From assembly GCA_016906335.1 (NCBI GenBank), contig JADEYG010000007.1, positions 1 to 64,000 on the forward strand: DNA of 64,000 nucleotides, written 5' to 3'. Under the pieces are notes generated by a model. That model was not told the origin of the DNA, made no database searches, and saw nothing but the letters and a program-made list of their open reading frames with translations. Origin of the DNA: Novakomyces olei (taxonomy: Eukaryota). Below are positions 128 through 21,828 of the stretch, one piece after another; position 1 is the stretch's first letter, and each line of letters starts with the position of its first letter. Position numbers and translations under genes: made by a program.

Positions 128-285
128 GCGCTCCAACGCACGGTTGCGGCGCTCGAGGCGAGCGATAGTCGCATCGCGCTGGGCCAGCGCACTCGAAACC
201 GAACCGACGATCGAATTTGTTGACGGAGGACCGTCATCGGCAATTACATGCACCTCGAATGGTGCCTGACGTCTTTCCTCCTGCG

Positions 286-685
286 TGTTACGATTTAATT
301 TATTTCTATATTGTTATTGCGTCTTCGATAGCACCGACGCTATTGAAGCGCTATATTATTATTTGTTTGTTGTCTTTATTTAATATTGAATATTTATTTA
401 AATATTTACTTATTATTTATTATTTATTGACTATTATTGTTCTGACTGCTTTTACTTGTTAGTTTGTTTAATCGTTTAAGTAGTTAGTGTTTCTAGAATA
501 TTCTACGTAGCGAGGATATAAATAGAGGTCCTGCTTCTACTTTTCTCGCTACGTGTAATCGAACTTTGGGGAGACCCAATCTTTTAAACCCAGTTCTATC
601 TCTTAATTTTCTCATAGTCCCAGAGCCGGCGTGAAATCCGGCAATTGGGTTCTCCTTTAGGCTTTCGCCTTCTACAACCATAACA
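286..685 (+). repeat. 5' LTR of element A
   Basis: Identical by eye to 6206-6605; TG...CA ends; TATAAATA at 517-524. Confidence 0.95.
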
Positions 686-687
686 GT

Positions 688-696
688 ATTACACGT
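688..696 (+). promoter_or_regulatory. Self-priming primer-binding site of element A (Tf1-type)
   Basis: ATTACACGT is the reverse complement of LTR 551-559 ACGTGTAAT, which lies about 30 nt downstream of the TATA box. Confidence 0.75.
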
Positions 697-738
697 CCAC
701 GATTCGGGGACTGTGACGTTTTCTTCGAGCTTTTTACG

Positions 739-1650
739 ATGGATTATCAGCAGCTACAATCGTTTCTTGAGCAAACGACGGCTCGCCTCGAGAGACTCGA
801 AACGGAAAACCAGAGCCTTAGTGAGCGACTTCGCGCCGCTAATGGAATCGTGTCCAACACGCGCACCAAGGAGCCTAAGCTTGCTCCTCCGCCGTACTTT
901 TCGGGCGATCGTTCGCAAACGGGGGATTTTCTGACCCATGTCCAGATGGTCATCGCGGGACAACCGGAACGATACAGCACGGATCGGCAGCGTGTTATGT
1001 TTGCAGCCTCCTACCTTAGGGGAGTTGCTTTTAAATGGTTTGAGCCACATGTCCGTAGCGACAATGGCGCCATACTTGACGATTTTAACAATTTTTGCCA
1101 AACCTTGGAGAAAATGTTCGGGGACAGGGACGTCCGCAGAACGGCTGAAAGACAGATCCGCTTATTGAGACAGAAGGGATCCGTGTCGCATTATGCCACA
1201 GAGTTTGAGCGTGTTAAGTCGTGGCTTACGTGGAACAACGATGCGCTCGTTGCGCAGTTCTACGAAGGACTTAAAGAGGATATCAAAGACGAATTGGCTC
1301 GTCGCGATCCGCCAGAAGAGCTTGAGAAGCTCATTGAAGAATGCGTTAAGATTGATACTCGCTTGTTTGAACGAAGCAAGGCTAGAACCAGAACGGTGAA
1401 GAGAATACCGGAGTACCGTGGAGTGGGCTCGGCTGGTTATACACCTATGGAAGTTGACTTTTTGGAGACAAGAGCAAGTTTGAAAGATAGCGTCCGTGCT
1501 AACAGGAACGCTAAACCGAAGCATGTTGGCTTTAAGGTCAAATGTTATCGTTGCAATGAAGAAGGACATGTTTCGAAGTATTGTCCTGCACCATATCCTG
1601 CGAGAGATGTGAGAGCAGAGGATTCGAAGAATTTAAAAGGCCAAGCCTAG
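739..1650 (+). CDS. gag: Gag of element A
   Basis: Retrotransposon gag motifs (AASYLRGVAFKWF, LRQKGSV, TPMEVD) and CCHC knuckle CYRCNEEGHVSKYC. Confidence 0.93.
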   Translation: MDYQQLQSFLEQTTARLERLETENQSLSERLRAANGIVSNTRTKEPKLAPPPYFSGDRSQTGDFLTHVQMVIAGQPERYSTDRQRVMFAASYLRGVAFKWFEPHVRSDNGAILDDFNNFCQTLEKMFGDRDVRRTAERQIRLLRQKGSVSHYATEFERVKSWLTWNNDALVAQFYEGLKEDIKDELARRDPPEELEKLIEECVKIDTRLFERSKARTRTVKRIPEYRGVGSAGYTPMEVDFLETRASLKDSVRANRNAKPKHVGFKVKCYRCNEEGHVSKYCPAPYPARDVRAEDSKNLKGQA

Positions 1651-4600
1651 AGCCGACGGTGGTGTCTCTAGGGGTGATGGCACAGAAAAAGCCACCAGAC
1701 GATAAACCTTATGGGAGGTTTGAGTTGTCGTGTGTTGTAAACGGCAAGAGAATTAAAGTGCTACTAGACAGTGGGTCAGACACTAATTTTATTAATCCAA
1801 GAACTGTTTTGGCACTTAAGGCCGAGACCGAACGTCTGAAAACACCTATATTTGTCAGAGTTGCAAATGGAAAGCATATTGCACGAGGTGGAGTACCCAT
1901 AAAGACGAAGGATCTACATGTCGATGTACAAGGTTTTGTATCTGAAGAATCATTCCTTGTTACCAATATTGGCAAGAACGACGCCATCCTTGGGTTACCA
2001 TGGTTTCAGAAGCACAATCCAGATATTGATTGGATTAATGGAACTATAAAGCCTCGCAATGCAAGTACTCCTACGGTGAAAGACGAAATTTCGAATATAC
2101 AGTTGAGCAGTATTACCACGGATGAAGAGATGGTTACAAATACAATACCACCAGAGTATACTGACTTTAAAGATGTGTTTGAAGAAAAGAACGTGGAAAC
2201 ATTGCCTCCACACAGAAGTTACGATCACGAGATCGAACTAACAAAGGATTCTGTTGTACCTTTCGGGCCAGTCTACAGTGTCAACCCAAAGGAACAGAAG
2301 TATTTATTGGATTATTTGGAAGAGAACTTGGCTAAGGGATTTATACGTCGTTCCAAGTCGCCTGCAGGAGCGCCAGTTCTATTTGTACCAAAGAAAAATG
2401 GAGAATTACGATTGTGTGTCGATTATCGTGGATTGAATTCGATTACTATCAAGAACAAGTACCCAATCCCACGTATCGATGACCTTATTGACAAACTTAC
2501 TGGAGTTAAGATTATGTCAAAAATCGATCTCAGAGGAGCATACAATCTTATCAGGATAAAAGAAGGGGATGAATGGAAGACTGCCTTTCGAACAAGGTAC
2601 GGGCATTTCGAATATTTGGTCATGCCTTTTGGTCTTACCAATGCACCCGCCACGTTCCAAAACTTGATGAATGATGTGTTTCGAGATTTATTAGATTACA
2701 AAGTGTTAATCTATCTGGACGACATTTTGGTATTTTCACGCGATAGGGAATCGCATGTGAACGATGTGAAAGAAGTATTAAGAAGATTGAGAGAGAATAA
2801 TCTTTATGCTAAGGACGAGAAATGCGCATTTCACAAAGAAAGCGTCGAATTTCTTGGTTACAACTTATCGACGAATGGAGTGTCGATGTGCGCAGATAAA
2901 AGGGAACCTATTTTGCAATGGGAGCCACCAAGATCTGTGCACGATGTTCAAGTCTTCCTTGGTTTTTGCAACTACTACAGGAGATTTATAAAAGATTTTG
3001 CGAAGATAGCGTTGCCGATAACACGAACGCTAAAGAAAAATGAAAAGTTTATATGGGAGACAGAGCAGCAGGAAAGCTTTGCTAAATTGAAAAAATGTTT
3101 CGTTAGCGATGTGATGCTACAACACTATGACCCAGATCAACAATGTATTATCGAAACGGATGCGTCTGATTTTGCACTCGGAGCAGTGTTGACGCAAGGG
3201 CCAGAAAAAGGCAGACGACCAGTTGCATTTATAAGCCGAAAGCTTACACCAGCAGAGACTAACTACGACATACATGATAAAGAGTTGTTAGCTATAGTTT
3301 GGGCTTTCAAAGTTTGGAGAACGTATTTGCAAGGTCATGCTATACCAATTATTGTCTACACAGACCATCGCAACTTACAGACATTTACAACGACGAAACA
3401 GCTCTCTAGAAGACAGGCGAGATGGGCCGAAGTCTTATCAGAGTATAATTTTGTGATCACGTACCGAAAGGGATCAGCAAATGGAGGTACTGATGCTCTA
3501 AGTCGACGTACCGAGTTAAATGAATTAAAGAAAAGCAATTATATGGACAACCAACAGCGCATATTGCTAGCACCAGAATTGTTTGCAAATGCTATTACAA
3601 CTGATCAAACCACAGGAGATTCTCAAGAGCAGGCAGAAACAGCAATCGCTATGCCAACTAAATTATTTGTCGATGAGAAGGATCGAATTAAAGTATTGTC
3701 ACAGGCTCATGACCATCCCCTAGCAGGTCATTTTGGGACAGCAAAAACAATCGCACTGCTGAAGAGACATTTTACATGGCCAGGCCTTACAAAGGATGCT
3801 ACAGATTATGTTCAAGCTTGTACAACATGTATGAGAAACAAGACAACGCGCCACAAAAGAACGGGATTACTAAATCCACTACCAAGTCCGACCAGACCAT
3901 GGAAATCTATATCTATGGATTTTATTGTTAAATTACCACAAGCGGGAGGATTTGACTCTATATGGGTTGTGGTGGACAGATTTTCTAAAATGGTGCATTT
4001 TATTCCGATTAAAGAAGCTGTCACAGCTCAAGAGTTAGCGACAAAGTTTATTTCAGAGATTGTACGCTTACATGGGCTTCCTGACGAAATCATTTCAGAC
4101 AGAGATCCTAAATTCGTGAGTAATTTTGGACCTGTTTAGCGAAACAATTGGGAATTACGTTGAATAAGTCGACCAGTCATCATCCACAGACTGATGGTCA
4201 GACTGAGAAGATGAATCAAACATTGGAGCAATACTTGAGATGCTATGTGAACTATTACCAGACGAACTGGATAACTTTGCTACCGTTTGCAGAGATTGCT
4301 ATGAATAACTCAGTTAGCAGCGCTACACAGCAATCGCCTTATTTTATTTGTTATGGATATCACCCGAGATTATCTTTAAATGGACAGGAAACAGAAAATC
4401 CTACGGCAAATGAGACTGCCACGAATTGGAGTCATCATTTTGAGAAAATCAATGAATTATTGAATGACAACGCCACGCGAATGAAGAGGTTTTACGACAG
4501 AAAAGTACGACCAGGACCGGTTTATGAACCAGGAGACCTTGTCTGGATTCGTAAAACGCATATACGAAGTGAAAGACCAAGTGAAAAATTTGATCACATA

Positions 4601-4977
4601 CACATCGGACCCTTCAAAGTTATTGAACGAATTGGGAGGAGTGCTTATCGAGTGGAACTACCAGCACATATAAAAGTACATGATGTATTTAACGAAACAA
4701 TGTTGGAACCACACAAGCCAGACCGTTTTAATCGAGACCCGACAGATCTTGTTGTACCGGATATATTGGAAGAAACAATGAATATGAAGTGGATCATATT
4801 GTGCAACACAAAGGGCGCGGTCGCGGAATACGATATTTAGTGCACTGGAAAGGGTATGGACCAGACGATTGCACTTGGGAGCCATACAGCAATTTAAGTC
4901 ATGCACAAGAGGCTGTTGCCGAATATCATACTAAAAGGAAGAATTTAGCGTCTTCACTTTCTCTTACGCTATATTGA
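1581..4977 (+). CDS. pol: Pol of element A (protease, RT, RNase H, integrase, chromodomain); -1 frame to gag; two apparent 1-bp frameshifts near 4127 and 4778
   Basis: LLDSGS, YLDD, TDASD, HHCC zinc finger, D-D-E core, chromodomain VHWKGYG..TWEP; pieces 1581-4139, 4148-4840 and 4789-4977 are collinear with element B pol. Confidence 0.92.
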
Positions 4978-5167
4978 ATTACTTGAGTTAGCGTGCGTGC
5001 TAACACTGACGCTATATATAAAGTCAGCATTGATATTTTATTTTGATTATTACCTGCAATATTATTATTGTCGGTTACTTATATATTGGATTACTTACCA
5101 ATAATTTATTTTTATTTAAGGACGAGGAAAATTATTTCACTCTTAGCGGAAACGAAGCACAGCCGCA

Positions 5168-6205
5168 ATGTCAAACGCCTCGTCCCCAACACAATATTTT
5201 GACGCCTCGGAGACCTCACCAGTTCAGGGGGGAGGTAAGCGACGACGCAAAGGCATGGGACCGATCCCCTGCGATCTTTGCGACGCACGATTTTATCGCG
5301 CCAGCGAACTTTCGAGACATGAGCACACGCACAACAAGGTGCTAAAAGAAAGTTTACAGTTATGGAAAAATAATGCAGAAAATGCCACAAACTACGACTT
5401 GGGCATCTCGATACTGCAAAGGGCTACCCAAAAGAAGCCACAGATATGCCAACCAGAGACGCATGATAACGAACAGTTTGCCGAAAACGTTATCAAAGAT
5501 CTTCTACACGGAAGCTCGTGCAGCTTTGCAAAGACGAACGTTCGCGAATTGGACAACGAAGTCCATGTGTCTAACTTTGTACTACAATTCTTTACATCAA
5601 AGACCGATGGAGTTGCGGCGTACAACATTGTCCCGAGTGGGGATACGATGAGGCTGCTCACGCCTTTAAAACAGCATCAGAATCTAGCTTCTCTTTGGCT
5701 GTCTGCTGCATCGCCAGCGCCTCTTATAACCGATGTTCATGCCGACAACATTCTCTTGGCCAACACAATTATGTGTCTCTCTGGCAAGAAACTTGTTTTT
5801 ACCTGGCCCCCGACGGATGAGAACTTACGTCTGTTTGGACCCAGACACCGTCGCCACGGGGATCTATTCTTACCACTAGCGATTCGCTCTCTGTGCGGCC
5901 TCAAGTTAACATTCTTGACAGCCGGGAAAGCAATGACAATGGAACCGGGGACGTTACATGCGGTAATGACCCTCGAGAACTCTATTATCACTGGGTACTC
6001 GTTTGCATACACCCATTCGCGTCTCAAGCGTCTAGCCATGTGGGATGCTGAGAGTGCAAAAGGAACGGATTTGGAACTTCAAGTTGAGAACGAGCACCAG
6101 GAAGCAATTGAAGTTTACCGAGCCACTCTTCCTGCTTATTACAACGCGAAAAAGAAGTTTATTTATTCGGGCTTACAGGTGTTACGCCTCGGGAGGGGAG
6201 AGTAG
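5168..6205 (+). CDS. Element A ORF3: C2H2 zinc finger plus JmjC-domain 2OG/Fe(II) dioxygenase (KDM2/Epe1-like)
   Basis: Cx2Cx12Hx3H finger, basic KRRRK, TDVHAD (HxD), SGKK..WPPT.ENL, PGTLHAVMT...GYSF distal His; intact 345-aa ORF inside the LTRs. Confidence 0.82.
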   Translation: MSNASSPTQYFDASETSPVQGGGKRRRKGMGPIPCDLCDARFYRASELSRHEHTHNKVLKESLQLWKNNAENATNYDLGISILQRATQKKPQICQPETHDNEQFAENVIKDLLHGSSCSFAKTNVRELDNEVHVSNFVLQFFTSKTDGVAAYNIVPSGDTMRLLTPLKQHQNLASLWLSAASPAPLITDVHADNILLANTIMCLSGKKLVFTWPPTDENLRLFGPRHRRHGDLFLPLAIRSLCGLKLTFLTAGKAMTMEPGTLHAVMTLENSIITGYSFAYTHSRLKRLAMWDAESAKGTDLELQVENEHQEAIEVYRATLPAYYNAKKKFIYSGLQVLRLGRGE

Positions 6206-6605
6206 TGTTACGATTTAATTTATTTCTATATTGTTATTGCGTCTTCGATAGCACCGACGCTATTGAAGCGCTATATTATTATTTGTTTGTTGTCTTTATT
6301 TAATATTGAATATTTATTTAAATATTTACTTATTATTTATTATTTATTGACTATTATTGTTCTGACTGCTTTTACTTGTTAGTTTGTTTAATCGTTTAAG
6401 TAGTTAGTGTTTCTAGAATATTCTACGTAGCGAGGATATAAATAGAGGTCCTGCTTCTACTTTTCTCGCTACGTGTAATCGAACTTTGGGGAGACCCAAT
6501 CTTTTAAACCCAGTTCTATCTCTTAATTTTCTCATAGTCCCAGAGCCGGCGTGAAATCCGGCAATTGGGTTCTCCTTTAGGCTTTCGCCTTCTACAACCA
6601 TAACA
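6206..6605 (+). repeat. 3' LTR of element A
   Basis: Copy of 286-685, preceded by PPT GGGAGGGGAGAG. Confidence 0.95.
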
Positions 6606-6622: not shown

Positions 6623-9202
6623 TTGGAAGAAAACTTGCAATCAGGATTTATTCGAAAATCTAAAAGTCCAGCTGCATCACCTGTACTATTTGCACCGAAG
6701 AAAGACGGTGACCTTAGACTCTGTGTCGACTACAGAGCTTTAAACAAAGTTACAGTGAAGAACCGTTATCCTTTGCCGCGCATTGATGGACTTATTGATA
6801 AGTTAGCGCAGGCCATCTACTTCACTAAACTAGATTTGCGAGGTGCATACAACCTCATCAGAATTAAGAAAGGAGACGAATGGAAAACAGCATTTCGTAC
6901 TCGCTATGGATTATTTGAATATCGCGTAATGCCATTTGGACTTACAAATGCACCAGCGACGTTTCAAAATTTAATGAATGACATATTTCGAGATATATTA
7001 GATGTCAAAGTTTTGGTTTATCTAGACGACATTCTAGTATATAGCAAGACCCTTGAGCAACACCTTCAGGATGTTCGCGAAGTACTTTATCGCTTACGAC
7101 AACACACTTTATATGTGAAACTAGAAAAATGTGAATTTCACAAAGCTACTGTTGAATTTCTAGGATATATCATATCAAAAGATGGACTGTCAATGGCAAA
7201 ATCGAAAACAGAGCCAATACAAAACTGGCCACAGCCAAAGAATGTCAAAGACGTGCAAATTCTTTTAGGTTTCTGCAACTACTATCGCCGCTTTATCCCG
7301 AATTTCTCGAAAATTGTATTACCAATAACTGAGTTACTCAAGCAAAAAACCGCATTCGCTTGGACCGCCGCTCAGAGCGACGCTTTTAGCGACTTGAAGA
7401 AATCATTTCTAAAAAATGTTATGCTTGATCATATTGATAACAATTTGCAATGTGTCATTGAAACAGACGCTTCAGACTTTGCTTTAGGCGCCTGTCTACG
7501 ACAACAAAGCAAAGACAAACGACCTATCGCCTTCATTAGTAGAAAGCTACTACCAGCAGAGCTAAATTACGACATTTACGACAAAGAACTTTTGTGTATC
7601 GTGTGGAGTTTACGCACATGGCGTCATTATTTACATGGCTCACCACATCCTATACTGATCTACAGTGATCACCAAAACCTACAAACGTTTACAACATCGA
7701 AAATACTCACCAGACGACAAGCCAGATGGGCTGAGATCTTAGCTGAGTTCGATTTTAACATTATTTATCGAAGAGGTCAATTAAACATACCTGCTGACGC
7801 ATTGAGCCGCCGCTCCGACTTAGCAGATACTACGGATATTGAATATCAAAAGATACAATTGAAACCACTGCTTAAACAATCGCAGTTTATCGCAGTAAAC
7901 ACCGTTGAAGAAGGCAAAACATTTGTGCCACCCGAGAATCGACAAGAGATTCTAGCAGCGTGTCATGATCACCCGCTATCTGGTCATTTAGGAATCAATA
8001 AAACCATTGAACTTGTCACCAGAAATTACTTTTGGCAGGGAATTCACCGCGACGTAAAGAAATACGTACAAGGCTGCACTACTTGCACCCGAAACAAGGT
8101 CCCCAGACATCGCCCTTATGGACTGCTAGTACCACTCTACGTTCCCGACCGCCCTTGGAAGTCTATTTCTATTGACTTTATTGTTAAACTGCCTATTTCT
8201 AAATCCTTTGATTCAATTTTTGTTGTGATAGACCGATTTTCAAAGATGGCTCACTTTATACCAACAGTCGAAACAATTACATCTTTCGATCTCACACACA
8301 TTTTTATCAAGGAAATTATCCGCCTACATGGAATCCCAGAAGACATCGTATCGGATCGCGATACACGATTTGTTAGCAAATTTTGGAATTCACTAACGCA
8401 ACAACTTGGCGTTACACTACGAAAGTCAACCAGCCACCATCCCCAAACAGATGGCCAAACGGAACGACTAAATCAAACTTTGGAACAGTACATACGCTGT
8501 TATTCTAATTACCAACAAGACAATTGGTCTGATTTGCTCCCTTTTGCCGAATTCGCTTACAACAATACTATAAGCGCGAGCACCAAACAAAGCCCATTTT
8601 TTACTTGCTACGGTTATCACCCAAGAAGCGCTTTTACACCACTGCAGACGCCGAATGAATCTGCTAACAAACTTGCTATGGATTGGAAAAACCACTTTAA
8701 TTCTACACAATCTATACTCAAACAATCAATTCAAAGAATGAAAGATTTTTATGATCGCAAACGACTGGAAGCACCCAAATTTAACATTGGCGACTTAGTT
8801 TGGATACGACGAGAACACATTTTATCATCAAGACCAAGCCCAAAGCTCGATCATGTTTTTCTCGGACCTTTTCCCATTATAGCTACAGTTGGCCCAGCCG
8901 CTTATCGCATTGAATTACCAGATCATATTAAAATCCACAATGTTTTTCATGAAACACTGCTCTCAAGACACAAACCTGACCGATTTAATCGTGAATCGAC
9001 AGAACAAATTGTGCCCGATATACTCAAAGACACAGAAGAATATGAAGTTGATCATATCGTCAGTCATCGTGGACGTGGAAAGAACCGCCAATATTACGTC
9101 CATTGGAAAAACTATGGACCAGAAGACCGTACCTGGGAACCATACGAAAACTTGGTTAATGCACAAGACGCTTTACGCGAATATCACAATCGCAACCTTT
9201 GA
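6623..9202 (+). pseudogene. pol: 5'-truncated Pol of element B (RT, RNase H, integrase, chromodomain)
   Basis: LRLCVDYRALN, YLDD, TDASD, HHCC, DDE, chromodomain YEVDHI..VHWKNYG..TWEP; lacks protease and gag. Confidence 0.9.
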
Positions 9203-9407
9203 AACTACCAATTATTCTCTAATTATGCTTTTTATCACTTATTGATTTTAATTCAGGGATAAAAACTTCTATTACACCAACATTTTTATTGTTTTACTAC
9301 GAAATGGGACACTGATTCAACTCCGGTACCCTTGTTATTGTATGCCTCAACCTCATACAGCTTGATTTTTATATTGATTCTTTATTATCTATTCGAATCT
9401 ATCTTGC

Positions 9408-10038
9408 TGTCATGATCCTCGCCTTGGCGAGTCCCTGACAACCGCGTTGGGAAGCGAGGGGCGACGCCTGTAGTCGGACTTGGGATGTCCGCGCGTCGCG
9501 AGCTTCGCCAACGCGGCCCAAGACCAGTCGGCGCGTAATGCGATGGTCTTGGGACGTAGAAGTTGTCTTAGTGCGCATGTAGGTACGCGCACTAAGCCAG
9601 CTTGGCCCACGGGAGCGAGGGGCTCCATGCACAATGTGCACGGACCTCGCTTCCCGTTCTCATTCTCGCACGCTAGCGAGTGCGACCCTTCGCACTCCGC
9701 TAGCGCGAGAACATTCATAGTTATTTCCATAGTCTAGTTTAGGTTGAGAGCTTCCCGCTCTAACTTGCGCGACCTTCGCTCAAGTTAGTTTGGGAAGAGT
9801 AGTTTAGAGTGCGAAGGAGCATCCGCTCCTCCGCAGCTTAGTTTAGTTTATAGTTGCCCGTGAAGGCCTCTTGCCCTTCACGGGTTGATTATCTCAAAGT
9901 GGGAGTAATACATTATATTACTCCTGGTAAGCTTTACAGTAATCGCTTTCTGCTTTCCTGGTCTTTCTTATTCCTTTACTTTATTTAAACTATACACGGC
10001 CGGCCTCCAGCGATTGTAGCTGTAAGGACCGCCTTACA
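9408..10038 (+). repeat. 5' LTR of element C
   Basis: TGTCA...TTACA; matches 15736-16366. Confidence 0.95.
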
Positions 10039-10040
10039 CT

Positions 10041-10053
10041 ATAATCAACCCGT
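10041..10053 (+). promoter_or_regulatory. Self-priming primer-binding site of element C
   Basis: ATAATCAACCCGT is the exact 13-nt reverse complement of LTR 9880-9892. Confidence 0.85.
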
Positions 10054-10374
10054 CCCGGTCGTTGAAGTTTGAAGTTTTTTGGAATTGTTTGTGTTTTATT
10101 TCCTTCGGATTCGAGAGAGTTTCGGACGTCGAGTCAAAGACGCGGTTCGGTACTTATTTTTACGGATTTTTACGGAAGTTAAAACGGTTAAAGCGTCGAG
10201 TGAAGGACGTGGATTCGAGTTTGAGAATTTTGAGTTATCGAGTGTTCCGGTGAAACACAGTTATTTTGAGTTATTGAGTATCGGCTTGGATAGTCGACGA
10301 TTGAGTGAACAATTTACGAAGAACGGTTCTGGAAGAACGATTACGATTACGAGTTTTGCGGTACGAGGGACAAG

Positions 10375-11307
10375 ATGTCGCAAGAGGAGCTTAACACCTT
10401 TTTGCAATCCCTGCAAGCTCAGATTGCCGAGTTGAAGGCAGAGAACGAGAAAGGGCGATCGCACATTGCGCATCTGACCCAGGAGATCGGTTCGCGAGCT
10501 AAGAGAGCTCCGACGAGTGACGGACCAGCGGTGATGAAGCCCGACGCGTTTCGTGGGGACCGCAGAATGGTCGAGAATTTTTTGGCGCAGCTTCGCCTTT
10601 ACATCATGTTGAAACCGCACGAGTTTCGCGACGAGCGTTCGAAGGTTTTGTTCGCAGCTTCGTATTTGCGGGACGCCGCATTTGCGTGGTTCGAACCACA
10701 CCTTCGCAACAACGACTTCGCTTCGGTAGTACCTACTTTTGAAGCCTTTTGCGAAGCGTTGGCCGCGAATTTCGGCAAAGTCGACAGGGTGAGTCAGGCG
10801 CAAAGAGAGTTAGCCGCCTTGAGACAACGTGGATCAGCAGCATCTTATGCGAGCATTTTTCAAAGAATTGCTTCGTATTTGGATTTCAATGACAGTGCGC
10901 TGACGTTCATGTATTATCAGGGGCTGAAGGATCGCATCAAGGATGAGCTTTCCAGGATGGACAGACCCCGCACTTTGAATGAAATGATTGAGATTTCAGT
11001 TCGCGTGGATGGAAGAATATCCGACAGGCACATCGAGAGTGCAAGCCGCGGTTCCGTGAAATATTCCAACAACCGCCCGGCTGCAAACGCGAGTACAAGT
11101 TTTACTCCTATGGATGTGGACGCGATTAGTTTGGAAAAGGAGGATAACAACCATCGCAAAAGCAACATCAAATGCTTTAACTGTGGACGCGTGGGTCATC
11201 GAGCAAGAGAATGCAAGCAGAAGAAGAAGACGTACAATCAGCAACACGTCGCTGCATTCACGCACGAATTTTCCGATTTGGGAAAAGCGAACGCCCAGGT
11301 CCAATGA
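10375..11307 (+). CDS. gag: Gag of element C
   Basis: AASYLRDAAFAWF, LRQRGS, TPMDVD, CCHC knuckle CFNCGRVGHRAREC. Confidence 0.94.
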   Translation: MSQEELNTFLQSLQAQIAELKAENEKGRSHIAHLTQEIGSRAKRAPTSDGPAVMKPDAFRGDRRMVENFLAQLRLYIMLKPHEFRDERSKVLFAASYLRDAAFAWFEPHLRNNDFASVVPTFEAFCEALAANFGKVDRVSQAQRELAALRQRGSAASYASIFQRIASYLDFNDSALTFMYYQGLKDRIKDELSRMDRPRTLNEMIEISVRVDGRISDRHIESASRGSVKYSNNRPAANASTSFTPMDVDAISLEKEDNNHRKSNIKCFNCGRVGHRARECKQKKKTYNQQHVAAFTHEFSDLGKANAQVQ

Positions 11308-14300
11308 AAAGGCCTGATCTGGGCAAACAACAATTTAGGCCACCAGAAGTTATGACAGTTTTTACGGAACCGGACAAAGCAAAGCATCTGACTGTCGTCG
11401 TGAAAGTCAAGACAGAGGATGGAGAGTTGAACGCGAGAGCCCTGATTGACTCAGGAGCTACCTCTAATTTTATCAGCGAGAAACTCGCATCGCATGCTTT
11501 TATTAAGCTTACGGAGAAGAGCGAGACCGAGCCCATCAGAGTCGTTGATGGAAGGACAATCAAGTCAGGAGGTATTCGCTTTCACACCAGCGAGATGGAT
11601 ATATCAATTGGCGAACATCGAGAAAGGATGACCTTCAATGTCATACCTCTTCGTGGATACGATGCTATCTTGGGCAAGCCATGGTTGGACAAGCATGAGC
11701 CTACGATCGGATGGAGTCGCGCAAACGTCGAGTTTAAGTCGAACTACTGTTTGGCGAACTGTTTGAAGTGCAGTACATTATCCGAATCCATGCAAGTCAG
11801 CGCAACCGAATTTGCAAGATTGGCTCGTAATGGAGAATCAGGTATTTTATGTGTGTACGCAACGGACGAGCAAGATATCAAGCCTCGCGTTACATTGCCT
11901 GGGTTCTACGAGGGATATCGCGACCTATTTGAGAAGAAGAACGCGGACGTTTTGCCGAAACATCAACCTTGGGATCATGCGATACCCTTGGCCGAAAATG
12001 CAAAGCCGCCTTTTGGTCCGATCTACCCGCTCGCCGAACGCGAATTGCAAACGCTGAGAGATTATATCAAGGAAAACCTCGCTAAAGGTTTTATACGACC
12101 GTCGTCGTCGCCCGCGGGGGCGCCGATCTTATTTGTCAAAAAGAAAGATGGATCGCTTAGATTATGCGTTGACTATCGCGGTCTGAACGCAATCACTGTC
12201 AAAAACAGATATGCATTACCGCTTATATCCGAACTTCTAGATCGCATTCGCCAAGCAACTATTTTTACGCGATTGGATCTTCGCGGTGCATATAATTTGG
12301 TTAGGATACGAAAAGGCGACGAATGGAAAACGGCCTTTCGTACGAGGTACGGCCACTACGAGTACCAAGTCATGCCGTTTGGGCTTACGAATGCCCCGGC
12401 TTCGTTTCAAGCACTCGCCAACGACACTTTGCGAGATTGCCTGGATCGATATGTTGTCGTTTACTTGGACGATATACTGATTTACTCAAATACAGAGGAA
12501 GAACACGTGGAGCACGTGCGCGGAGTATTGGAGAGACTTCGCAAGGCAAATTTATTTGTCAAATTGGAGAAATGCGAATTCCATACCGACACAACGGAGT
12601 TTCTTGGCTTCGTGATTTCAACGAAAGGTGTGTCGATGGAAAATACGAAGGTCAAATCGATTGAAACATGGCCCGAGCCAAAGAATGTTAAGGAGGTTAT
12701 GTCGTTCCTGGGACTGGCGAACTATTACCGAAGATTCATCGCCAACTACAGCAAGATTACGGTACCTCTTACCCGGCTTTTAAAGAAGGATACAAAGTTC
12801 GTGTTTAGCGACGAATGCAGGGAGTCATTCAATGCGTTGAAGGATGCATTCTTAGGCGCACCTATTCTTGTGCACTTTGATCCACAAAAGCCGAGCTTCT
12901 TGGAAACGGACGCCTCAGATTTTGCGATAGGCGGGATCCTTTCGCAAAAGGATGAAAACGGCGACACGAGACCAATCGCATTTTACTCGCGCAAGATGAC
13001 AAGCGCAGAGACGAACTACGACATTCACGACAAGGAGCTATTAGCTATTGTTGTATGTCTTCGGGAATGGAGGGTATACTTGGAGAGTCCCCTTCACAAA
13101 ACCACGATATACACGGATCATCGCAATCTTGTGTACTTTTGGACCGCGCGTGTCCTGAATAGACGGCAAATGCGCTGGTCGCAGTTACTTGCGTCTTACG
13201 ATTTTGTGATCGTGTATCGTGCGGGAAAGTTTAACCACAAGGCTGACTCCTTATCGCGAAGAAGCGATTACGTTAGCAGCGAAGAGGAGGAAAAGCCAGA
13301 ACGAACAATGGTGCTTTTGGACAAATCGCAATTTGTGTTTGCGATTGAGGACAACAAAACGCTGGCACAGGATATTAAGAAATGCTACGAGAAGGACAGC
13401 ATTTGCAAAAATATTATTGAGGAGTTAAAGAGCAAGCCTCGTGCTGCTCATTTGGAGAACTATACAATAGACAAGGAAGGTCTGTTAATGTTCTCGGGTT
13501 TGATTTACATACCCAGAGACAACGATTTGCGATTATCAATCATGCAAGAATGTCATGATTCGCAGACTTCAGGTCACCCCGGACAGGCCAAGACGCTAGA
13601 GCTTGTGACACGAAATTACTACTGGCCTAGGATGCGGAAGGACGTATTTAACTATGTGGACTCATGCGACACTTGCGCACGAAGTAAACCATCGCGTCAT
13701 GCTCCTTATGGTCTACTACATTCGTTGCGAGTGCCTACAAAGCCTTGGGAAAGCATTGCTATGGACTTCATTGTGAAGCTCCCGGTGTCAAGAGATGTCA
13801 TCACAGGCAAAGACTACGACTCAATTTGGGTTATAGTATGTCGCTTTACGAAGATAGGCATCTTTGTACCAATATGCGAGACCATGAGCGCGAAAGAACT
13901 AGCATTGCTATACGCTCACAGAGTATTTGCTAACTTTGGACTGCCAGAAGAAATTATCTCAGATCGTGGATCAGTTTTCGTATCACATTTTACAAAGCAT
14001 TTACTCGCACATTGTGATATCAAGCAAAGGTTATCAACTGCGTACCATCCCCAGAGCGATGGACAAACGGAAAGGCTTAATCAGAGCCTCGAGCAATATT
14101 TGAGAATTTACAGCAATTACCAACAAACGAATTGGGTAAACTTGCTACCTTTTGCACAGTTCGCATATAACAATACTGAGCAATCATCAATAAAAGCGAC
14201 CCCTAGTTACGCTTTATATGGGTATCACCCCAAATGCCGTTTTACGATAGCAACAGCACGGCAGTGTCCATCGGCGGACAATCGGATTGATTTCTTGCGA

Positions 14301-14828
14301 ACGCTACATCGCCTTTTACAGATCGAAATCAAGCACGCCATTAGCGATCAAGCACGGTTTGCTAATACGCACCGTGTCGACAAGAATTTTGAAGTCGGTC
14401 AGAAAGTATGGCTAGTGAGAAAGAACATCAGTACCACTAGGCCAAGCGACAAGTTGGATTACAGGAAGATTGGACCCTTTGCAATCTTGGAACGTATCGG
14501 TTTACGTGCATACAAGTTGGATTTACCGAACACGATGAGAATACACCCAGTATTCCATGCTTCTTTATTGGAATCGTACAAGTCTACGTCTACGATTGTG
14601 CGACAGCAGACAGCACCACCACCACCAATAATAATTGAGAATACACCAGAGTGGGAGGTAGAGGAAGTGTTGGACTCAAGGAAGCGAAGAAACAAATTGG
14701 AATACTTCGTACACTGGAAGAGATACGATAGTGCTAATCGCACTTGGGAGCCGGCAGGCAATTTGACAAATTGCGACGATTTAGTGAAAGAATTTCACAG
14801 ATTACACCCGGCTAAGCCGAAGCTATGA
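11211..14828 (+). CDS. pol: Pol of element C (PR-RT-RH-IN-chromodomain), expressed by -1 frameshift
   Basis: LIDSGA, YLDD, TDASD, HHCC, DDE, GPF, chromodomain WEVEEV..VHWKRY..TWEP; slippery G GGA AAA at 11280-11286. Confidence 0.95.
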   Translation: MQAEEEDVQSATRRCIHARIFRFGKSERPGPMKRPDLGKQQFRPPEVMTVFTEPDKAKHLTVVVKVKTEDGELNARALIDSGATSNFISEKLASHAFIKLTEKSETEPIRVVDGRTIKSGGIRFHTSEMDISIGEHRERMTFNVIPLRGYDAILGKPWLDKHEPTIGWSRANVEFKSNYCLANCLKCSTLSESMQVSATEFARLARNGESGILCVYATDEQDIKPRVTLPGFYEGYRDLFEKKNADVLPKHQPWDHAIPLAENAKPPFGPIYPLAERELQTLRDYIKENLAKGFIRPSSSPAGAPILFVKKKDGSLRLCVDYRGLNAITVKNRYALPLISELLDRIRQATIFTRLDLRGAYNLVRIRKGDEWKTAFRTRYGHYEYQVMPFGLTNAPASFQALANDTLRDCLDRYVVVYLDDILIYSNTEEEHVEHVRGVLERLRKANLFVKLEKCEFHTDTTEFLGFVISTKGVSMENTKVKSIETWPEPKNVKEVMSFLGLANYYRRFIANYSKITVPLTRLLKKDTKFVFSDECRESFNALKDAFLGAPILVHFDPQKPSFLETDASDFAIGGILSQKDENGDTRPIAFYSRKMTSAETNYDIHDKELLAIVVCLREWRVYLESPLHKTTIYTDHRNLVYFWTARVLNRRQMRWSQLLASYDFVIVYRAGKFNHKADSLSRRSDYVSSEEEEKPERTMVLLDKSQFVFAIEDNKTLAQDIKKCYEKDSICKNIIEELKSKPRAAHLENYTIDKEGLLMFSGLIYIPRDNDLRLSIMQECHDSQTSGHPGQAKTLELVTRNYYWPRMRKDVFNYVDSCDTCARSKPSRHAPYGLLHSLRVPTKPWESIAMDFIVKLPVSRDVITGKDYDSIWVIVCRFTKIGIFVPICETMSAKELALLYAHRVFANFGLPEEIISDRGSVFVSHFTKHLLAHCDIKQRLSTAYHPQSDGQTERLNQSLEQYLRIYSNYQQTNWVNLLPFAQFAYNNTEQSSIKATPSYALYGYHPKCRFTIATARQCPSADNRIDFLRTLHRLLQIEIKHAISDQARFANTHRVDKNFEVGQKVWLVRKNISTTRPSDKLDYRKIGPFAILERIGLRAYKLDLPNTMRIHPVFHASLLESYKSTSTIVRQQTAPPPPIIIENTPEWEVEEVLDSRKRRNKLEYFVHWKRYDSANRTWEPAGNLTNCDDLVKEFHRLHPAKPKL

Positions 14829-15040
14829 TGTTTACGTTAATCGCGATACAGGTTACGTCATTCAACTCACGTAATCTTACGCAATCGCGAGACTCAACTC
14901 TTGATTTTTGTTTACGACTGCGATATAATACACAATTCGCACTAGTTATTTATCGCTATTTGGAAATATTTTTTTGAAAATGTATAAAAAATTATTAAAA
15001 TCAAAACAAGATGTATCGCATATTTGAAGAATTTTGGCGC

Positions 15041-15472
15041 TCATTCCAAGCCGCGCAAAGCCGAAATTTCCGCTTTCAGCTCTAGGACCTGCTGACGGAG
15101 CGAATCGATTTCGCGATCTTTAGCGGCCAATGCTCTTTCAACAGCAACCCCGAGGCCCTCAGACGAATCGGTTGCCGCGCATTGGGCGACTTCTACAACG
15201 GGCGTCGCAACGCGAGGAACAGTGGAGGCCAACTTTGCCTTACGAGCGTTATCATACTTACGATACTCGCGCTCGACGATCGACCCGCGTATGCGCGAAT
15301 TCAACAGGGTCGGCGACATAAACATCGCGCCCTCGCACTTGGTTTTACGCGCCGCACACGCTAAGCAGCGACGGACGCGAGGGATGGCTGTCATGAAGAA
15401 CTCACAGCGCCTCCCCTGCGAAACACAATAGTCGCACGGCTTCTCGGACACAGTCACACGTGCAAGCGACAT
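15041..15472 (-). CDS. Element C antisense ORF3: Zn(II)2Cys6-like domain plus C-terminal coiled coil
   Basis: CDYC-x6-C-x12-CLAC-x6-C fits the Gal4 spacing; heptad tail DSLRQQVLELKAEISALRGL; AT-rich flanks. Confidence 0.7.
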   Translation of the reverse strand: MSLARVTVSEKPCDYCVSQGRRCEFFMTAIPRVRRCLACAARKTKCEGAMFMSPTLLNSRIRGSIVEREYRKYDNARKAKLASTVPRVATPVVEVAQCAATDSSEGLGVAVERALAAKDREIDSLRQQVLELKAEISALRGLE

Positions 15473-15735
15473 CGCGTTCAGAACTGTCTTTGCGAACGCG
15501 ACTGGATACTATTTATCTTCGCGTTTTGCCTCTTTACCCCTCTGCAACAAAACGCGAACACCCCTTTTATTTTCCCATGCTATTCTATATGTTTATTTAC
15601 GCGTTTACTGAGGAGAAAATATTATTGTGACACGCGGCAATTGAAATTAGCGTTTATTTTGTTCGCCTTTCTATTTTTATGGAATATTTTATGTTTTGCG
15701 GGCGCGGGGACCTCGCCCAAGGGAGGGGGGGATAC

Positions 15736-16366
15736 TGTCATGATCCTCGCCTTGGCGAGTCCCTGACAACCGCGTTGGGAAGCGAGGGGCGACGCCTGTA
15801 GTCGGACTTGGGATGTCCGCGCGTCGCGAGCTTCGCCAACGCGGCCCAAGACCAGTCGGCGCGTAATGCGATGGTCTTGGGACGTAGAAGTTGTCTTAGT
15901 GCGCATGTAGGTACGCGCACTAAGCCAGCTTGGCCCACGGGAGCGAGGGGCTCCATGCACAATGTGCACGGACCTCGCTTCCCGTTCTCATTCTCGCACG
16001 CTAGCGAGTGCGACCCTTCGCACTCCGCTAGCGCGAGAACATTCATAGTTATTTCCATAGTCTAGTTTAGGTTGAGAGCTTCCCGCTCTAACTTGCGCGA
16101 CCTTCGCTCAAGTTAGTTTGGGAAGAGTAGTTTAGAGTGCGAAGGAGCATCCGCTCCTCCGCAGCTTAGTTTAGTTTATAGTTGCCCGTGAAGGCCTCTT
16201 GCCCTTCACGGGTTGATTATCTCAAAGTGGGAGTAATACATTATATTACTCCTGGTAAGCTTTACAGTAATCGCTTTCTGCTTTCCTGGTCTTTCTTATT
16301 CCTTTACTTTATTTAAACTATACACGGCCGGCCTCCAGCGATTGTAGCTGTAAGGACCGCCTTACA
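15736..16366 (+). repeat. 3' LTR of element C
   Basis: Copy of 9408-10038 after the PPT. Confidence 0.95.
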
Positions 16367-16498
16367 CTTGCCCAAATAACTATTTTCTGAACTAATTATT
16401 GATTCTATTTATTTATTATTTTTCTATTAAGGAACCCACCTATTATTGAAGGGGGAGTAATGCTCTGCAATATTTGTGCTATGTATCACGTATACACG

Positions 16499-16845: not shown

Positions 16846-17836
16846 ATGCCTCGAGAAAAAAGCACCAGACGCCCCAGAAACCAAGGACCGCTAGAATGTT
16901 TAGATTGTGGAACAAGGTTCTACGAACAATATGACAGGAAACGGCATCAGATTGCAGTCCATGACAAAAGAATGTCTGCGTGCATCAAGGAGTTTTATCG
17001 TTGCGGGGGAAAATCGACAAATTACGAAAGTGTGCTGACGTGTTTGCGCACGCTAAGCACTCGCCAAACAGCTCTCCATGAAGCAGCCTACGATACGGTC
17101 GACATCGAGTGTGAAGATCTCCTCAAGGATCTAACGTCCCGTTCACCATGTCAGATTATTGACAACGCATCGAACCAAATCGTTCTCAAGGCCACTAGTG
17201 TTATCTCATTTCTTGCAGCGTGGATGGATCGGGGCGCAAACCCATACGCGGTGTACAATTTAAAACCTAGCCGATTGGGGCTCCGCCAAAAAGCTACGTC
17301 CTCTTGACGAGCATGCGGATAACACGACAAACTGGACGTCGGTCCTTACACCAGCAGGGACTGTAACAGACGTGCACATTGATCCCATCATGTTCGGGAC
17401 AGTTGTCTACGGTGTTTTCGGAACAAAAATGATTCTAACATGGCCGCCCACACCAGAGAATCTTTCCTGGTTTGGACCAAGGCATCGACAAAATCATCAG
17501 TTTGCATTGCGCGATGCCATCATCTACTTGCGCGGCCTGAAGTATTATATTCTCTCGGAGAATAGGTCAATCACGTTTCCACCAGGCACTCTCCACGGTG
17601 TTATCGCAATCACCGACTCTGCGCTGATGGGATACAACTTTGCCGTACTCGACAAGGACATTACGAGACTTATCGAGTGGGACGCAAACTTCGCAAAGGG
17701 TAAGGCTGAATTGACACGCGATGCGGTTGAAGAACATCGTGTTTGTCTTCGGCATTACGAAAAGGTTTTTAAGTCTTCTTTCTCTTCTTTTTCTTTTGAT
17801 TTCAACAAAGGACTTCGACTTTTGAGAGGGGAGTAA
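16846..17836 (+). pseudogene. Element B ORF3: C2H2 plus JmjC protein with one frameshift near 17290
   Basis: CLDC-x12-H-x4-H, TDVHID, GTK..WPPTPENL..FGPRHR, PPGTLHGV...GYNF; removing one A from CAAAAAG restores a frame collinear with A ORF3. Confidence 0.8.
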
Positions 17837-19143: not shown

Positions 19144-19245
19144 TAAATGGTGGCTAGACGCAACAGCTCAAGTCGACCTGTGTTCGCAAGCAACTAAATG
19201 GTGGCTAGACGCAACAGCTCAAGTCGACCTGTGTTCGCAAGCAAC
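19144..19245. repeat. 51-bp perfect tandem duplication
   Basis: TAAATGGTGGCTAGACGC...GCAAGCAAC twice. Confidence 0.9.
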
Positions 19246-19410: not shown

Positions 19411-21828
19411 TCATGCTTTTCCCTTCTTTCTGTCTACTCTGTCGCCTTCTGAACCTTGACTCGGAGAAAACTCGAGCTCCGCAATGCTTTCCTTAATGAT
19501 TTTTCCCATTTCGTCGTATAGCTCTTGTCCTTTTCCCTCAAGATATGTAGAAGGCACGTATAACCTTTTGTTCTCAAAATGAGAGCCAAATATGGCTTCA
19601 CGGAGTTTCTCCACACAGGGTATCAGCGGCCTGTACCCTTTGTGAAAACGTTCTTCCGTGACAGATTCAAACCTCTTTAGATTAAAAATAAGCCCTGCCT
19701 TGAAATCCGTGAGCTCCCGCATAGACACTGCATTCCATTTGTCAAACTCTGTTACCGTCCAGCCATCGCCTCCGGGCTCATAGTGCACGCATACCCAATA
19801 AAGAACCCAGAAAAACGACTCCAGATCGTGTAGAAAGCTATGATCTTGACCGTCCAGCAATGCGATCGACATGAAAGCTTTCGTGCCAGTTTTTGCTTTC
19901 GCCCCACACGCTTCTGTTCGATCTGTACGTATCGCCATATCCAGATCGATGATAAATGCCTCCACCTCTCCATCTTTTTCATTCATCATCAGATTTCCTG
20001 TCGAAATATCCCGGTGAAGAATTCCATTATCCAGCAATGACTTGTGTCCCCTGATACATTGCAGAATTGCTTCCAACAAAGCCTTCGGACTGCTTGCATT
20101 CGATATTCTCTTTCCAAAGTCGCGCAAGACCACGCGACGATGCTCGCGGTTTTCAGTTGTGCTTGCATCTGTACTCCTTTCGTTAGTCATCGACACACCA
20201 AGTCTTTGCCTTTTCGATTCAGGCTCGCTGGTGTTTGAGCGCTCACTGAAGCGAGTTTTGCTACTGCCTCCGAGACTGGTTGCTTTCCCAGCAAGCCGTA
20301 TCAAGCCTGAGCGTAACCGAGGTCGGATGAATGTCCTTTCGCCCTGTTCCGTCTCTGATTCCGAACTCTGCCAGTCTCGAATTTGTTTCGTGGTGTCAGC
20401 CACCCCTCTAATCATTACCGTCTCATGATGATAGTATCTTGCAACATTTGTAACATCTCTGGTTGATAAATATTTCAAGTACTGCCCTTCTTCTGGTCTT
20501 TTCGGATTCTGCCATGAGTCTTTGACTACAAGGGTTTGATCGGCGTTGTGTTCCACGTGTCCTCTCCAGATTTTTGTTCCTCGGCAGGCTATCCCGTAAG
20601 AATGATTTGCCACCTCTTCATCAAGAATAATAGTCTCATCTTTTCCTTCACGCTCTATGTTGATGTACTGCACCCCGTCACTCTGTCTTATCTTGATCGA
20701 AGGATCAAATCCTAAAGCCTCGTCGTCCATCACCATGAATCCAAGCATTATGCGCACTAGCTTTTCACGTTCCTTGTGTATACTAAACCCGGCTGAAGCA
20801 ACTGCCCCCGACCTATCAAACTCGAATATCCTCATCATTGTTCCACACAATGTAAACGCGAGCACAAATCGACGATTCTGGTGGCCCATGGCCTCCCTAG
20901 CGTATGTTGCTATGTCCACGCAGACTTGAACTGTTTTGTCGTCTTTAACGTTGCGTTTTAGTTCTCCAGGCACGACCAAATCTTTCATGTGCAGGCTGCC
21001 CTCGTTTGATGTGAGCCGTCCCACTCCGACGTCTAATTTTCGGATTTTCGGCAAGCCACTCATGCCTCTGTTGGGCTGCGACACCAATTTGCGCTGCACA
21101 GGCACCCCTTCGAAGAGGGCTGTCTCTGCAAGCTCCTTCACAAACGTTTTAAGCCACTCCAAGACATCATTTTGGTTTGCCTCCTTCGGCCAGCCCTTCC
21201 ACACGCCGCTACGGGCTGAATCTGCCCATAGCCTGCCAAAGACTCTCTGCGACAGTGTCTCCAGACTCATTCCATTTTCCCACACTACGCCTGAAAAGTG
21301 CCTTTCAAACAGATGCTTGTCAATGTAGATATCACCTATCTCTCGGCGGAGGAGCTCATCTATGGCAGAACGAGACTCACTGCAATTTGCGGTGCCGCTT
21401 GTGCTATTTGACTTGTAAGAATTGCCTTTCACCAGGGGAGCATTGCGTGCTTCAGGCGTGCTACTCCTTCCATCTGACCTGACAGCGTCCCGCAGACCCA
21501 GCCAAATCTCCGTGTCATCTTGCTGTTCTCCTACTGCCTTTAACAGACGCTCTGTGGGCTTGAGCCCATAGTCATTCCTCGAGAATTGAGCTTCCGCCAC
21601 CTCTTTGAGGCTCTCGCCATCAAACATGAGCTTCGATATCGCCGGGTGCTCTTTTAGCTTGCCATATATGCTACCGACTATTGTCCTCATCTCGACAATT
21701 CTGGCTGGCAAATTAGGCACTTGGTGTAAGTATGATAAAGCTAGATTAGCAATTCCCCTATAACCGACGAGTGTATCACCAAGAGGATGCTCTTGCACAA
21801 TGCGAGGCTGCTCCTCGTCCAGCAGCAT
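19411..21828 (-). CDS. Fungal-specific FunK1 family protein kinase (Pkinase_fungal)
   Basis: FDRSG, CRGT, VVKDSW, HRDISTGN, IDLD, GTKAFMSI, HDLESFFWVL; intronless 805 aa. Confidence 0.88.
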   Translation of the reverse strand: MLLDEEQPRIVQEHPLGDTLVGYRGIANLALSYLHQVPNLPARIVEMRTIVGSIYGKLKEHPAISKLMFDGESLKEVAEAQFSRNDYGLKPTERLLKAVGEQQDDTEIWLGLRDAVRSDGRSSTPEARNAPLVKGNSYKSNSTSGTANCSESRSAIDELLRREIGDIYIDKHLFERHFSGVVWENGMSLETLSQRVFGRLWADSARSGVWKGWPKEANQNDVLEWLKTFVKELAETALFEGVPVQRKLVSQPNRGMSGLPKIRKLDVGVGRLTSNEGSLHMKDLVVPGELKRNVKDDKTVQVCVDIATYAREAMGHQNRRFVLAFTLCGTMMRIFEFDRSGAVASAGFSIHKEREKLVRIMLGFMVMDDEALGFDPSIKIRQSDGVQYINIEREGKDETIILDEEVANHSYGIACRGTKIWRGHVEHNADQTLVVKDSWQNPKRPEEGQYLKYLSTRDVTNVARYYHHETVMIRGVADTTKQIRDWQSSESETEQGERTFIRPRLRSGLIRLAGKATSLGGSSKTRFSERSNTSEPESKRQRLGVSMTNERSTDASTTENREHRRVVLRDFGKRISNASSPKALLEAILQCIRGHKSLLDNGILHRDISTGNLMMNEKDGEVEAFIIDLDMAIRTDRTEACGAKAKTGTKAFMSIALLDGQDHSFLHDLESFFWVLYWVCVHYEPGGDGWTVTEFDKWNAVSMRELTDFKAGLIFNLKRFESVTEERFHKGYRPLIPCVEKLREAIFGSHFENKRLYVPSTYLEGKGQELYDEMGKIIKESIAELEFSPSQGSEGDRVDRKKGKA

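Follow-up and report, generated by a model that had tools for sequence, protein, structure and literature searches.

The antisense gene brtn of the Boty-like (BcGypsy1) retrotransposons of Botrytis cinerea is said to go back to Zhao et al. (2011, Virology 417:248). In the accessible parts of other accounts, both BcGypsy1 (PMC8365987) and a Boty-like element whose long terminal repeats (LTRs) are identical (PMC4227169) carry brtn, a BRTN-like transcript is recorded in Monilinia (PMC5987419), and fungal chromoviruses are drawn with extra open reading frames (ORFs) of unknown function (PMC2864245). ORFs that lie antisense between pol and the 3′ LTR form an established class, listed for maize Grande, rice RIRE2, Silene Retand and Phaseolus PvRetro13 and, among fungi, for Boty of Botrytis and Sclerotinia; in the accessible text of the same source, their products show no similarity to known proteins and their function is not known (PMC7264820). 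Here we describe such an ORF in a budding-yeast-like fungus. It lies in a 64,000-nucleotide stretch of Novakomyces olei (positions 1 to 64,000 of contig JADEYG010000007.1, assembly GCA_016906335.1; hereafter the window), within an intact Ty3/gypsy chromovirus that we call element C, and its predicted 143-residue product, P0001, carries the six-cysteine spacing of a Gal4-type Zn2Cys6 cluster. We favor, at a probability of about 0.45, a reading in which P0001 is the product of an antisense accessory gene of element C, and would be a small, basic zinc-cluster DNA-binding protein without an activation domain.

The ORF encoding P0001 runs from ATG to TGA on the minus strand at 15041-15472 (-), exactly as an earlier note on this DNA had claimed from the open frame. 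Because pol of element C ends with its stop codon at 14828 and the polypurine tract (PPT), read off the sequence as AAGGGAGGGGGGGA at 15719-15732 (+), ends 3 nt short of the 3′ LTR, this minus-strand ORF lies antisense between pol and the PPT, and it occupies the middle of the 890 bp that separate the two. P0001 is therefore found in the interval that defines the class of antisense ORFs termed aORF-3R, from the pol stop to the PPT or 3′ LTR on the opposite strand. An AT-rich stretch of 212 bp (14829-15040, -) follows the ORF on its 3′ side; it contains no ACGCG motif and two CGCG, and may serve as a 3′ end or terminator. The ORF is preceded by a 246-bp upstream region (15473-15718, -) of 43% GC, which we consider a candidate promoter. 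A search for repeats on either side of this cassette, such as a secondary insertion would leave, found only short ones at the level expected by chance.

Element C is an intact Ty3/gypsy chromovirus in a yeast-like ascomycete, and a very recent insertion. Its 5′ LTR (9408-10038, +) and 3′ LTR (15736-16366, +), delimited by self-BLASTN of the window and by reading their ends, are each 631 bp long and bounded by TG and CA; the aligned segments, 9407-10040 and 15735-16368, are 100% identical. The pentamer CTTGC, read off the sequence on both sides (9403-9407 and 16367-16371), forms a 5-bp target-site duplication (TSD). The recent, intact element with matching LTRs and TSD that the earlier note had recognized is thus borne out. 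Element C encodes gag (310 aa; 10375-11307, +), with the Pfam families Ty3_capsid, Retrotrans_gag and zf-CCHC, and pol (1205 aa; 11211-14828, +), which overlaps gag in the -1 frame and comprises protease (PR), reverse transcriptase (RT), RNaseH, integrase (IN), SH3 and chromodomain regions (Pfam RVT_1, RT_RNaseH, Integrase_H2C2, rve, SH3_Tf2-1 and Chromo). Element C therefore combines all the features expected of a chromovirus, namely TG...CA LTRs, a 5-bp TSD, a PPT, gag and a PR-RT-RNaseH-IN pol with a C-terminal chromodomain, and it is apparently active in its yeast-like host. A TGG-type primer-binding site was not found directly after the 5′ LTR (10039-10060), where the sequence reads CTATAATCAACCCGTCCCGG. 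In a protein search, homologs of its pol were at most 68% identical.

In P0001 itself, a pattern scan places cysteines C13, C16, C23, C36, C39 and C46 in the exact spacing CX2CX6CX12CX2CX6C (aa 13-46; 15335-15436, -), and only one of the seven cysteines in the protein, C98, falls outside this motif. The consensus spacing of Zn2Cys6 clusters is CX2CX6CX5-12CX2CX6-8C. P0001 falls within this range, with the 12-residue loop between the third and fourth cysteines (C3-C4 loop) at its upper limit. The pattern has two matches in the six frames of the window, one in P0001 and one in a host Zn2Cys6 factor (56889-56972, -); it occurs in none of 200 shuffled windows (0/200), and by our own estimate from the base composition of the ORF, its chance of arising in the P0001 frame is about 1e-5. 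The cysteine pattern, which the earlier note had given correctly, is thus far beyond chance and constitutes a strong signal.

The C-terminus of P0001 is dominated by a second feature, which the earlier note had called leucine-zipper-like. AlphaFold2, run with no alignment, models aa 104-142 (15047-15163, -) as a single helix with a predicted local distance difference test score (pLDDT) of 89-97, and the sequence of this amphipathic helix reads as four to five regular heptads, with V111, K118, L125, L132 and L139 at a positions and L115, I122, V129 and I136 at d positions. This segment is a candidate coiled coil. The codon CTG aligns with leucine much as other leucine codons do, both in a conserved hydrolase of the window (63% versus 70%) and in pol (62% versus 68%), so the CTG-encoded residues of P0001, L56 and the heptad residue L132, can be taken as leucines. 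A predicted homodimer of P0001 with four zinc ions scored 0.41 and one unrelated control scored 0.57, which is evidence neither way. Overall the protein is basic (25 lysines and arginines versus 17 aspartates and glutamates), and Pfam detects no Fungal_trans or other domain in it, in keeping with the claim that it has no obvious activation domain.

We compared P0001 with the Zn2Cys6 family by profile, sequence and structure. Zn_clus (PF00172) is the top Pfam family for whole P0001 (15.5 bits, E 0.019), and with aa 1-60 as the query it scores 18.9 bits (E 0.0016) and no other family reaches E<=1. The profile search proposed by the earlier note therefore does return the expected family, but below its curated gathering cut-off of 21 bits; a host factor of the same family (56700-56984, -), used as a positive control, scores 39.3 bits. 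In a BLASTP alignment with the Zn_clus exon of that host factor (E 0.57), every cysteine of the P0001 cluster falls opposite a cysteine, with a single gap of 6 residues in the C3-C4 loop. The AlphaFold2 model of whole P0001 has short helices at aa 14-19 and 37-42, one for each CX2C, and a second model of aa 1-60 has helices at aa 11-18 and 32-41. When the whole-P0001 model was searched against 350,542 PDB chains with Foldseek, 26 matches were obtained at E<=10 and none at E<=0.001. Among the 21 of these 26 matches listed, 18 are DNA-binding domains of Pho7, Leu3, Gal4, Hap1, AlcR, Put3 or Ppr1 and two are unrelated; the remaining one is 1cld, which we take to be LAC9, so that 19 of the 21 are zinc-cluster domains. 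Altogether, these comparisons are suggestive but fall short of placing P0001 in the Zn_clus family.

The region upstream of the ORF is packed with short CG-rich motifs. ACGCG is the core of the MluI cell-cycle box (MCB) of yeast G1/S promoters. Seven ACGCG/CGCGT motifs lie within the 263 bp at 15473-15735, at -5, -28, -52, -84, -131/-132 and -164 from the antisense ATG, one of them as the palindrome ACGCGT and two inside a perfect 11-nt inverted repeat (15518-15528 and 15548-15558). This corresponds to 26.6 motifs per kb, compared with 1.5 per kb in host DNA, and a count of seven was reached in none of 2000 dinucleotide shuffles. Five further motifs, at -303 to -445, occupy the adjoining U3 side of the 3′ LTR. 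By these motifs, 15473-15718 resembles a promoter of host type that would drive the antisense ORF; in a yeast, it would hardly act on the 5′ LTR of element C, which lies 5.5 kb away on its upstream side. A canonical TATA[AT]A box was not found in the 288 bp upstream of the antisense ATG.

When a 263-bp frame was slid along the whole stretch, a single further site, 34571-35134, reached seven motifs; it immediately precedes a host ORF of the glycoside hydrolase family 5 (GH5) at 35157-36710 (+). Ten ACGCG/CGCGT matches fall at 34535-35090, from -622 to -72 of the GH5 ATG, with two ACGCGT palindromes counted twice. Judged by these motifs, the region upstream of the GH5 ORF looks like an MCB-type promoter.

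Candidate targets for a Gal4-type protein can also be read in the element. Sites of the form CGG-N10-CCG or CGG-N11-CCG belong to the spacing class of Gal4-type sites. The LTRs of element C contain CGGACTTGGGATGTCCG, a CGG-N11-CCG site with 5-nt palindromic arms, at 9475-9491 and 15803-15819, and a CGG-N10-CCG site at 9641-9656 and 15969-15984. Pairs of the general form CGG-Nx-CCG number 26 across element C, three of them in each LTR, and are candidate targets at most.

Taken together, these features outline how the locus might work if P0001 is indeed an accessory gene product of element C. Element C would carry a self-contained cassette on its opposite strand, made up of the ACGCG-packed upstream region, the GC-rich 143-codon ORF and the AT-rich downstream region. 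P0001 would be translated from its own antisense transcript and enter the nucleus, where its zinc cluster would contact DNA, probably as an oligomer formed through the C-terminal helix. The LTR sites CGG-N11-CCG (9475/15803) and CGG-N10-CCG (9641/15969) and the ACGCG cluster are its candidate targets. Since it has neither an activation nor a middle-homology domain, P0001 would be expected not to activate transcription but to occupy sites, or to titrate a host zinc-cluster factor or pair with it; it could thereby act as a repressor, competitor or copy-number brake of the element, or as a modulator of host promoters. Placed antisense, the cassette could retain a promoter and 3′ end signals of its own while leaving the genomic RNA untruncated.

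Among the closest described systems is brtn. In the accessible accounts, both brtn and the P0001 ORF are extra genes placed antisense between pol and the 3′ LTR of a fungal Ty3/gypsy chromovirus with identical LTRs. The two differ in host, Leotiomycetes for brtn versus a budding-yeast-like fungus for P0001, and the accessible parts of the accounts that cite brtn mention no zinc-cluster motif. Searches of protein databases including NCBI found no sequence relatives of P0001, so homology to BRTN is unlikely, although the two sequences were not aligned directly. The plant aORF-3R genes (Grande gene23, RIRE2, Retand and PvRetro13) share the position and orientation of P0001; as far as the accessible text of PMC7264820 goes, a promoter upstream of the ORF belongs to Grande itself, some of the products are nuclear, and a regulatory role has been proposed. 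They belong to plant, non-chromovirus lineages, their ORFs are conserved across copies, and in that same text they have no similarity to known proteins, whereas P0001 has a recognizable DNA-binding signature. Placed beside Gal4-type Zn2Cys6 factors, P0001 shares a cysteine spacing within their range, a helix predicted at low confidence for each CX2C, a predicted heptad helix after the cluster and a fungal host. It differs from them in its Pfam score below the cut-off, its 12-residue C3-C4 loop, a helix some 58 residues off the cluster, the lack of a middle-homology or activation region, its location in a mobile element and the absence of any detectable ortholog.

HBZ, a basic leucine zipper (bZIP) protein that represses 5′ LTR transcription, offers a parallel from outside the fungi. 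Its antisense promoter lies in the 3′ LTR of human T-cell leukemia virus type 1 (HTLV-1; accessible text of PMC7264820). P0001 would resemble HBZ in that each is a small nuclear factor with a zipper-type helix whose gene lies antisense by the 3′ LTR, a likeness that extends to the position of the gene and the presumed role of P0001 only. HBZ belongs to a vertebrate retrovirus and is a bZIP protein; in P0001 a cysteine cluster takes the place of the basic region, and the bZIP family is not among the seven Pfam families that match it at E<=10. A fuller version of our proposal would make P0001 a fungal counterpart of HBZ, that is, an antisense Zn2Cys6 factor without an activation domain, encoded by a budding-yeast-type chromovirus and possibly gated by the cell cycle through an MCB-like promoter, that binds the LTR or host zinc-cluster sites and sets the transcription or copy number of the element. 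We consider this version, taken as a whole, unlikely.

Several observations weigh against reading P0001 as a zinc-cluster protein of element C, and the first group concerns the cluster itself. Its C3-C4 loop stands at the long extreme of the family range. Both Zn_clus scores, for whole P0001 and for aa 1-60, lie under the 21-bit cut-off, and the best aligned stretch covers only aa 36-48, against profile positions 3-15. The second cysteine of a Zn2Cys6 cluster is usually followed by a basic residue; in P0001, the residue after C16 is valine. The C-terminal helix begins about 58 residues past the cluster instead of adjoining it. Both AlphaFold2 models are of low confidence over the cluster (pLDDT about 50-64), all Foldseek matches of the whole-P0001 model have E>=0.22, and their enrichment in zinc-cluster domains may largely re-read the cysteine pattern through the amino-acid term of the score. 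With the aa 1-60 model, Foldseek found no Zn2Cys6 match, only one irrelevant match at E 9. Likewise, the protein-language search of the ESM Atlas found no Zn_clus cluster, with best scores of 0.77 for whole P0001 and 0.83 for aa 1-60; one cluster bearing DUF3716 appeared at 0.76.

A second group concerns relatives. A word-indexed protein search yielded 37 word-sharing candidates and no homolog at E<=0.01 (0/37). An exhaustive phmmer search of 1.84 billion representatives gave a single match, P0002 (E 2.5e-8), which we rejected as spurious: it consists of a 61-residue stretch of 26% identity that matches five times in a repetitive protein, with no pairing of cysteine to cysteine. Against PDB sequences, phmmer found nothing relevant, only one RNA recognition motif (RRM) protein at E 1.4, and within the window no second copy of P0001 was found at the protein or DNA level. 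The identical LTRs of element C, moreover, make the intactness of the antisense ORF uninformative as to selection. A scan of genome contigs gave 331 matches to the pattern, none of them confirmed; as it covered bacteria and archaea only, it is uninformative on fungi. The host lineage is itself poorly sampled. The closest match to the conserved window hydrolase, from Candida boidinii, is only 64% identical, with C. arabinofermentans and Ogataea next in rank, and neither P0001 nor nine other ORFs of the window have an exact copy in the protein collection, so that missing homologs count as weaker evidence here.

The third group concerns coding potential, for which the statistics are mixed. In codon log-odds, the P0001 frame ranks top among the six frames with each of three training sets, and on control chunks the same procedure was right about the frame every time (36/36). 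The value itself is -3.0; real-gene chunks have a median of 15.1 and score that low in 2 of 48 cases, whereas 8 of 35 spurious open frames equal or exceed the P0001 value. Codon position 1 is rich in G (55/144). When 14829-15735 was dinucleotide-shuffled 2000 times, 28 of the shuffles contained an ORF of 143 aa or longer (p ~0.014), which makes the length of the P0001 ORF suggestive only. The ORF block has 57% GC, and 62% at third codon positions (GC3), against 42-47% GC in its flanks. CGCG density is high over the whole of 15041-15913, and CGCG-rich sequence yields open frames that are rich in alanine and arginine and poor in stops, which would account for the composition of P0001, where alanine, arginine and valine make up 49 of the 143 residues. 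The ratio of observed to expected CpG is 1.52 in the ORF and 1.54 in its upstream region, similar to element C (1.34) and unlike host DNA (0.98), which argues that the cassette has resided in the element for some time rather than having arrived freshly from the host.

This last comparison bears on the rival that survives best, in which the cassette is a passenger: a recently captured fragment of a host Zn2Cys6 gene, truncated by a stop and consisting of promoter, cluster and dimerization helix, that would be confined to this copy or to a small subfamily and would have no role in the life cycle of the element. The cluster at aa 13-46, the helices and the stop at residue 143 together recall the N-terminal DNA-binding and dimerization layout of such factors, as found in the solved fragments that Foldseek listed, and the ACGCG cluster upstream of P0001 resembles a host promoter in the same window. 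In the accessible text of PMC7264820, transduced extra ORFs typically occur in one or a few copies. P0001 is present once in the window, and in so poorly sampled a lineage a parent gene could go unseen. Against capture stand the CpG values of the ORF and its upstream region, which are those of element C and not of the host, a codon usage unlike that of host genes, and the failure to find a parent gene in the window. Capture of an antisense promoter would moreover require an event at the DNA level, beyond simple read-through, and element C is otherwise compact and intact. We regard the passenger explanation as possible, though rather improbable.

Far less probable, in our view, is that the RNA is the product, with an antisense promoter and transcript controlling the element by antisense or double-stranded RNA (dsRNA) and the ORF being incidental. 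The significant promoter-like motif cluster upstream of the antisense frame and the weak codon usage of that frame would fit this idea, and antisense transcripts of retrotransposons may act through dsRNA-mediated silencing, according to the accessible text of PMC7264820. However, the transcript would not overlap gag-pol unless it extended more than 212 bp beyond the ORF, no stable RNA structure was found, and both the six-cysteine pattern and a 143-codon open frame reached in 28 of 2000 shuffles would be left unexplained. We rejected a structured RNA as the explanation of the region, where fold z-scores are not unusual (-0.85 for the sense and +0.17 for the antisense strand) and no Rfam match was found at E<=1. 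Very improbable as well is that there is no gene at all and that a CGCG-rich regulatory or compositional island beside the 3′ LTR has left one frame open by chance with coincidental cysteine spacing: the high CGCG density, the 49 alanines, arginines and valines, the failure of protein searches to find homologs, the Pfam scores under the cut-off and the lack of a family from the language-model search would all suit it, but the pattern in 0 of 200 shuffled windows and at about 1e-5 for this frame, the ORF length (p ~0.014), and the combination of predicted helices at both CX2C pairs with a heptad helix in the same frame argue against it.

Two further retrotransposons share this part of the window with element C. 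Element A (285-6605) has identical 401-bp LTRs, and element B includes a pol fragment at 6929-9202; both belong to families distinct from element C, with pol proteins 44-45% identical to that of C, and neither has an antisense ORF of the P0001 type. Each instead has an extra sense ORF between pol and the 3′ LTR, intact in element A (345 aa; 5168-6205, +) and split in two in element B (16846-17307 and 17390-17836, +). This shared ORF shows a C2H2-type finger (18.8 and 16.5 bits, under the Pfam cut-off of 25.2), and a conserved C-terminal part (36-37% identity, E 1e-28 / 2.9e-38) with a weak hint of Cupin_2 (13.2 bits), and its conservation between two diverged elements suggests a genuine accessory gene. 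Like P0001, it is found in a yeast chromovirus, in the interval from pol to the 3′ LTR, and has a zinc-finger-type motif; unlike P0001, it is sense, of C2H2 type and common to two elements, and the two are unrelated in sequence. The suggestion that all three elements carry accessory genes therefore holds broadly, but the description of those genes as chromatin- or DNA-directed is unproven for all three.

Host DNA of the window includes long, intron-free ORFs, among them members of the Pfam families Pkinase_fungal and Fungal_trans_2; the best protein matches come from Pichiales-type yeasts. The host Zn2Cys6 factor (55318-56984, -) has its Zn_clus exon at 56889-56972, preceded by an in-frame stop and with no ATG, and other short frames part this exon from the Fungal_trans_2 ORF (55318-56370), so that the gene is either spliced or decayed. 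An intron-free ORF of 805 aa at 19411-21828 (-), a fungal protein kinase by its Pfam match (PF17667, E 5.5e-119), adjoins the nest of three retrotransposons. At 45886-47955 (+) lies a CocE/NonD (peptidase S15) ORF whose best matches are from yeasts (49-64% identity), followed directly by many from Bacillaceae at 47-50% over the full length; going by these matches, it may be an old bacterial acquisition common to several yeasts. The window also contains short tandem repeats at offsets of about 10 bp and 90% identity at 1-124, and a perfect 51-bp tandem duplication at 19144-19245.

For their transcription, LTR retrotransposons are usually regarded as dependent on host factors. An element that brings a regulator of its own would be unusual. 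In the literature searched, judged by titles and the openings of abstracts, no retrotransposon-encoded zinc-cluster protein has been reported. The P0001 ORF extends the known kind of fungal antisense accessory ORFs to another group of hosts and, unlike its precedents, has a recognizable DNA-binding signature; the weight of this finding rests on one copy. Such a signature would provide the antisense-ORF class with its first testable biochemical hypothesis, on zinc content, DNA target and effect on LTR activity. On the fuller and unlikely version of our proposal, element C would encode a fungal counterpart of HBZ, made from a fungal-specific DNA-binding fold. If our main reading is true, fungal elements can carry a host-type regulator of their own.

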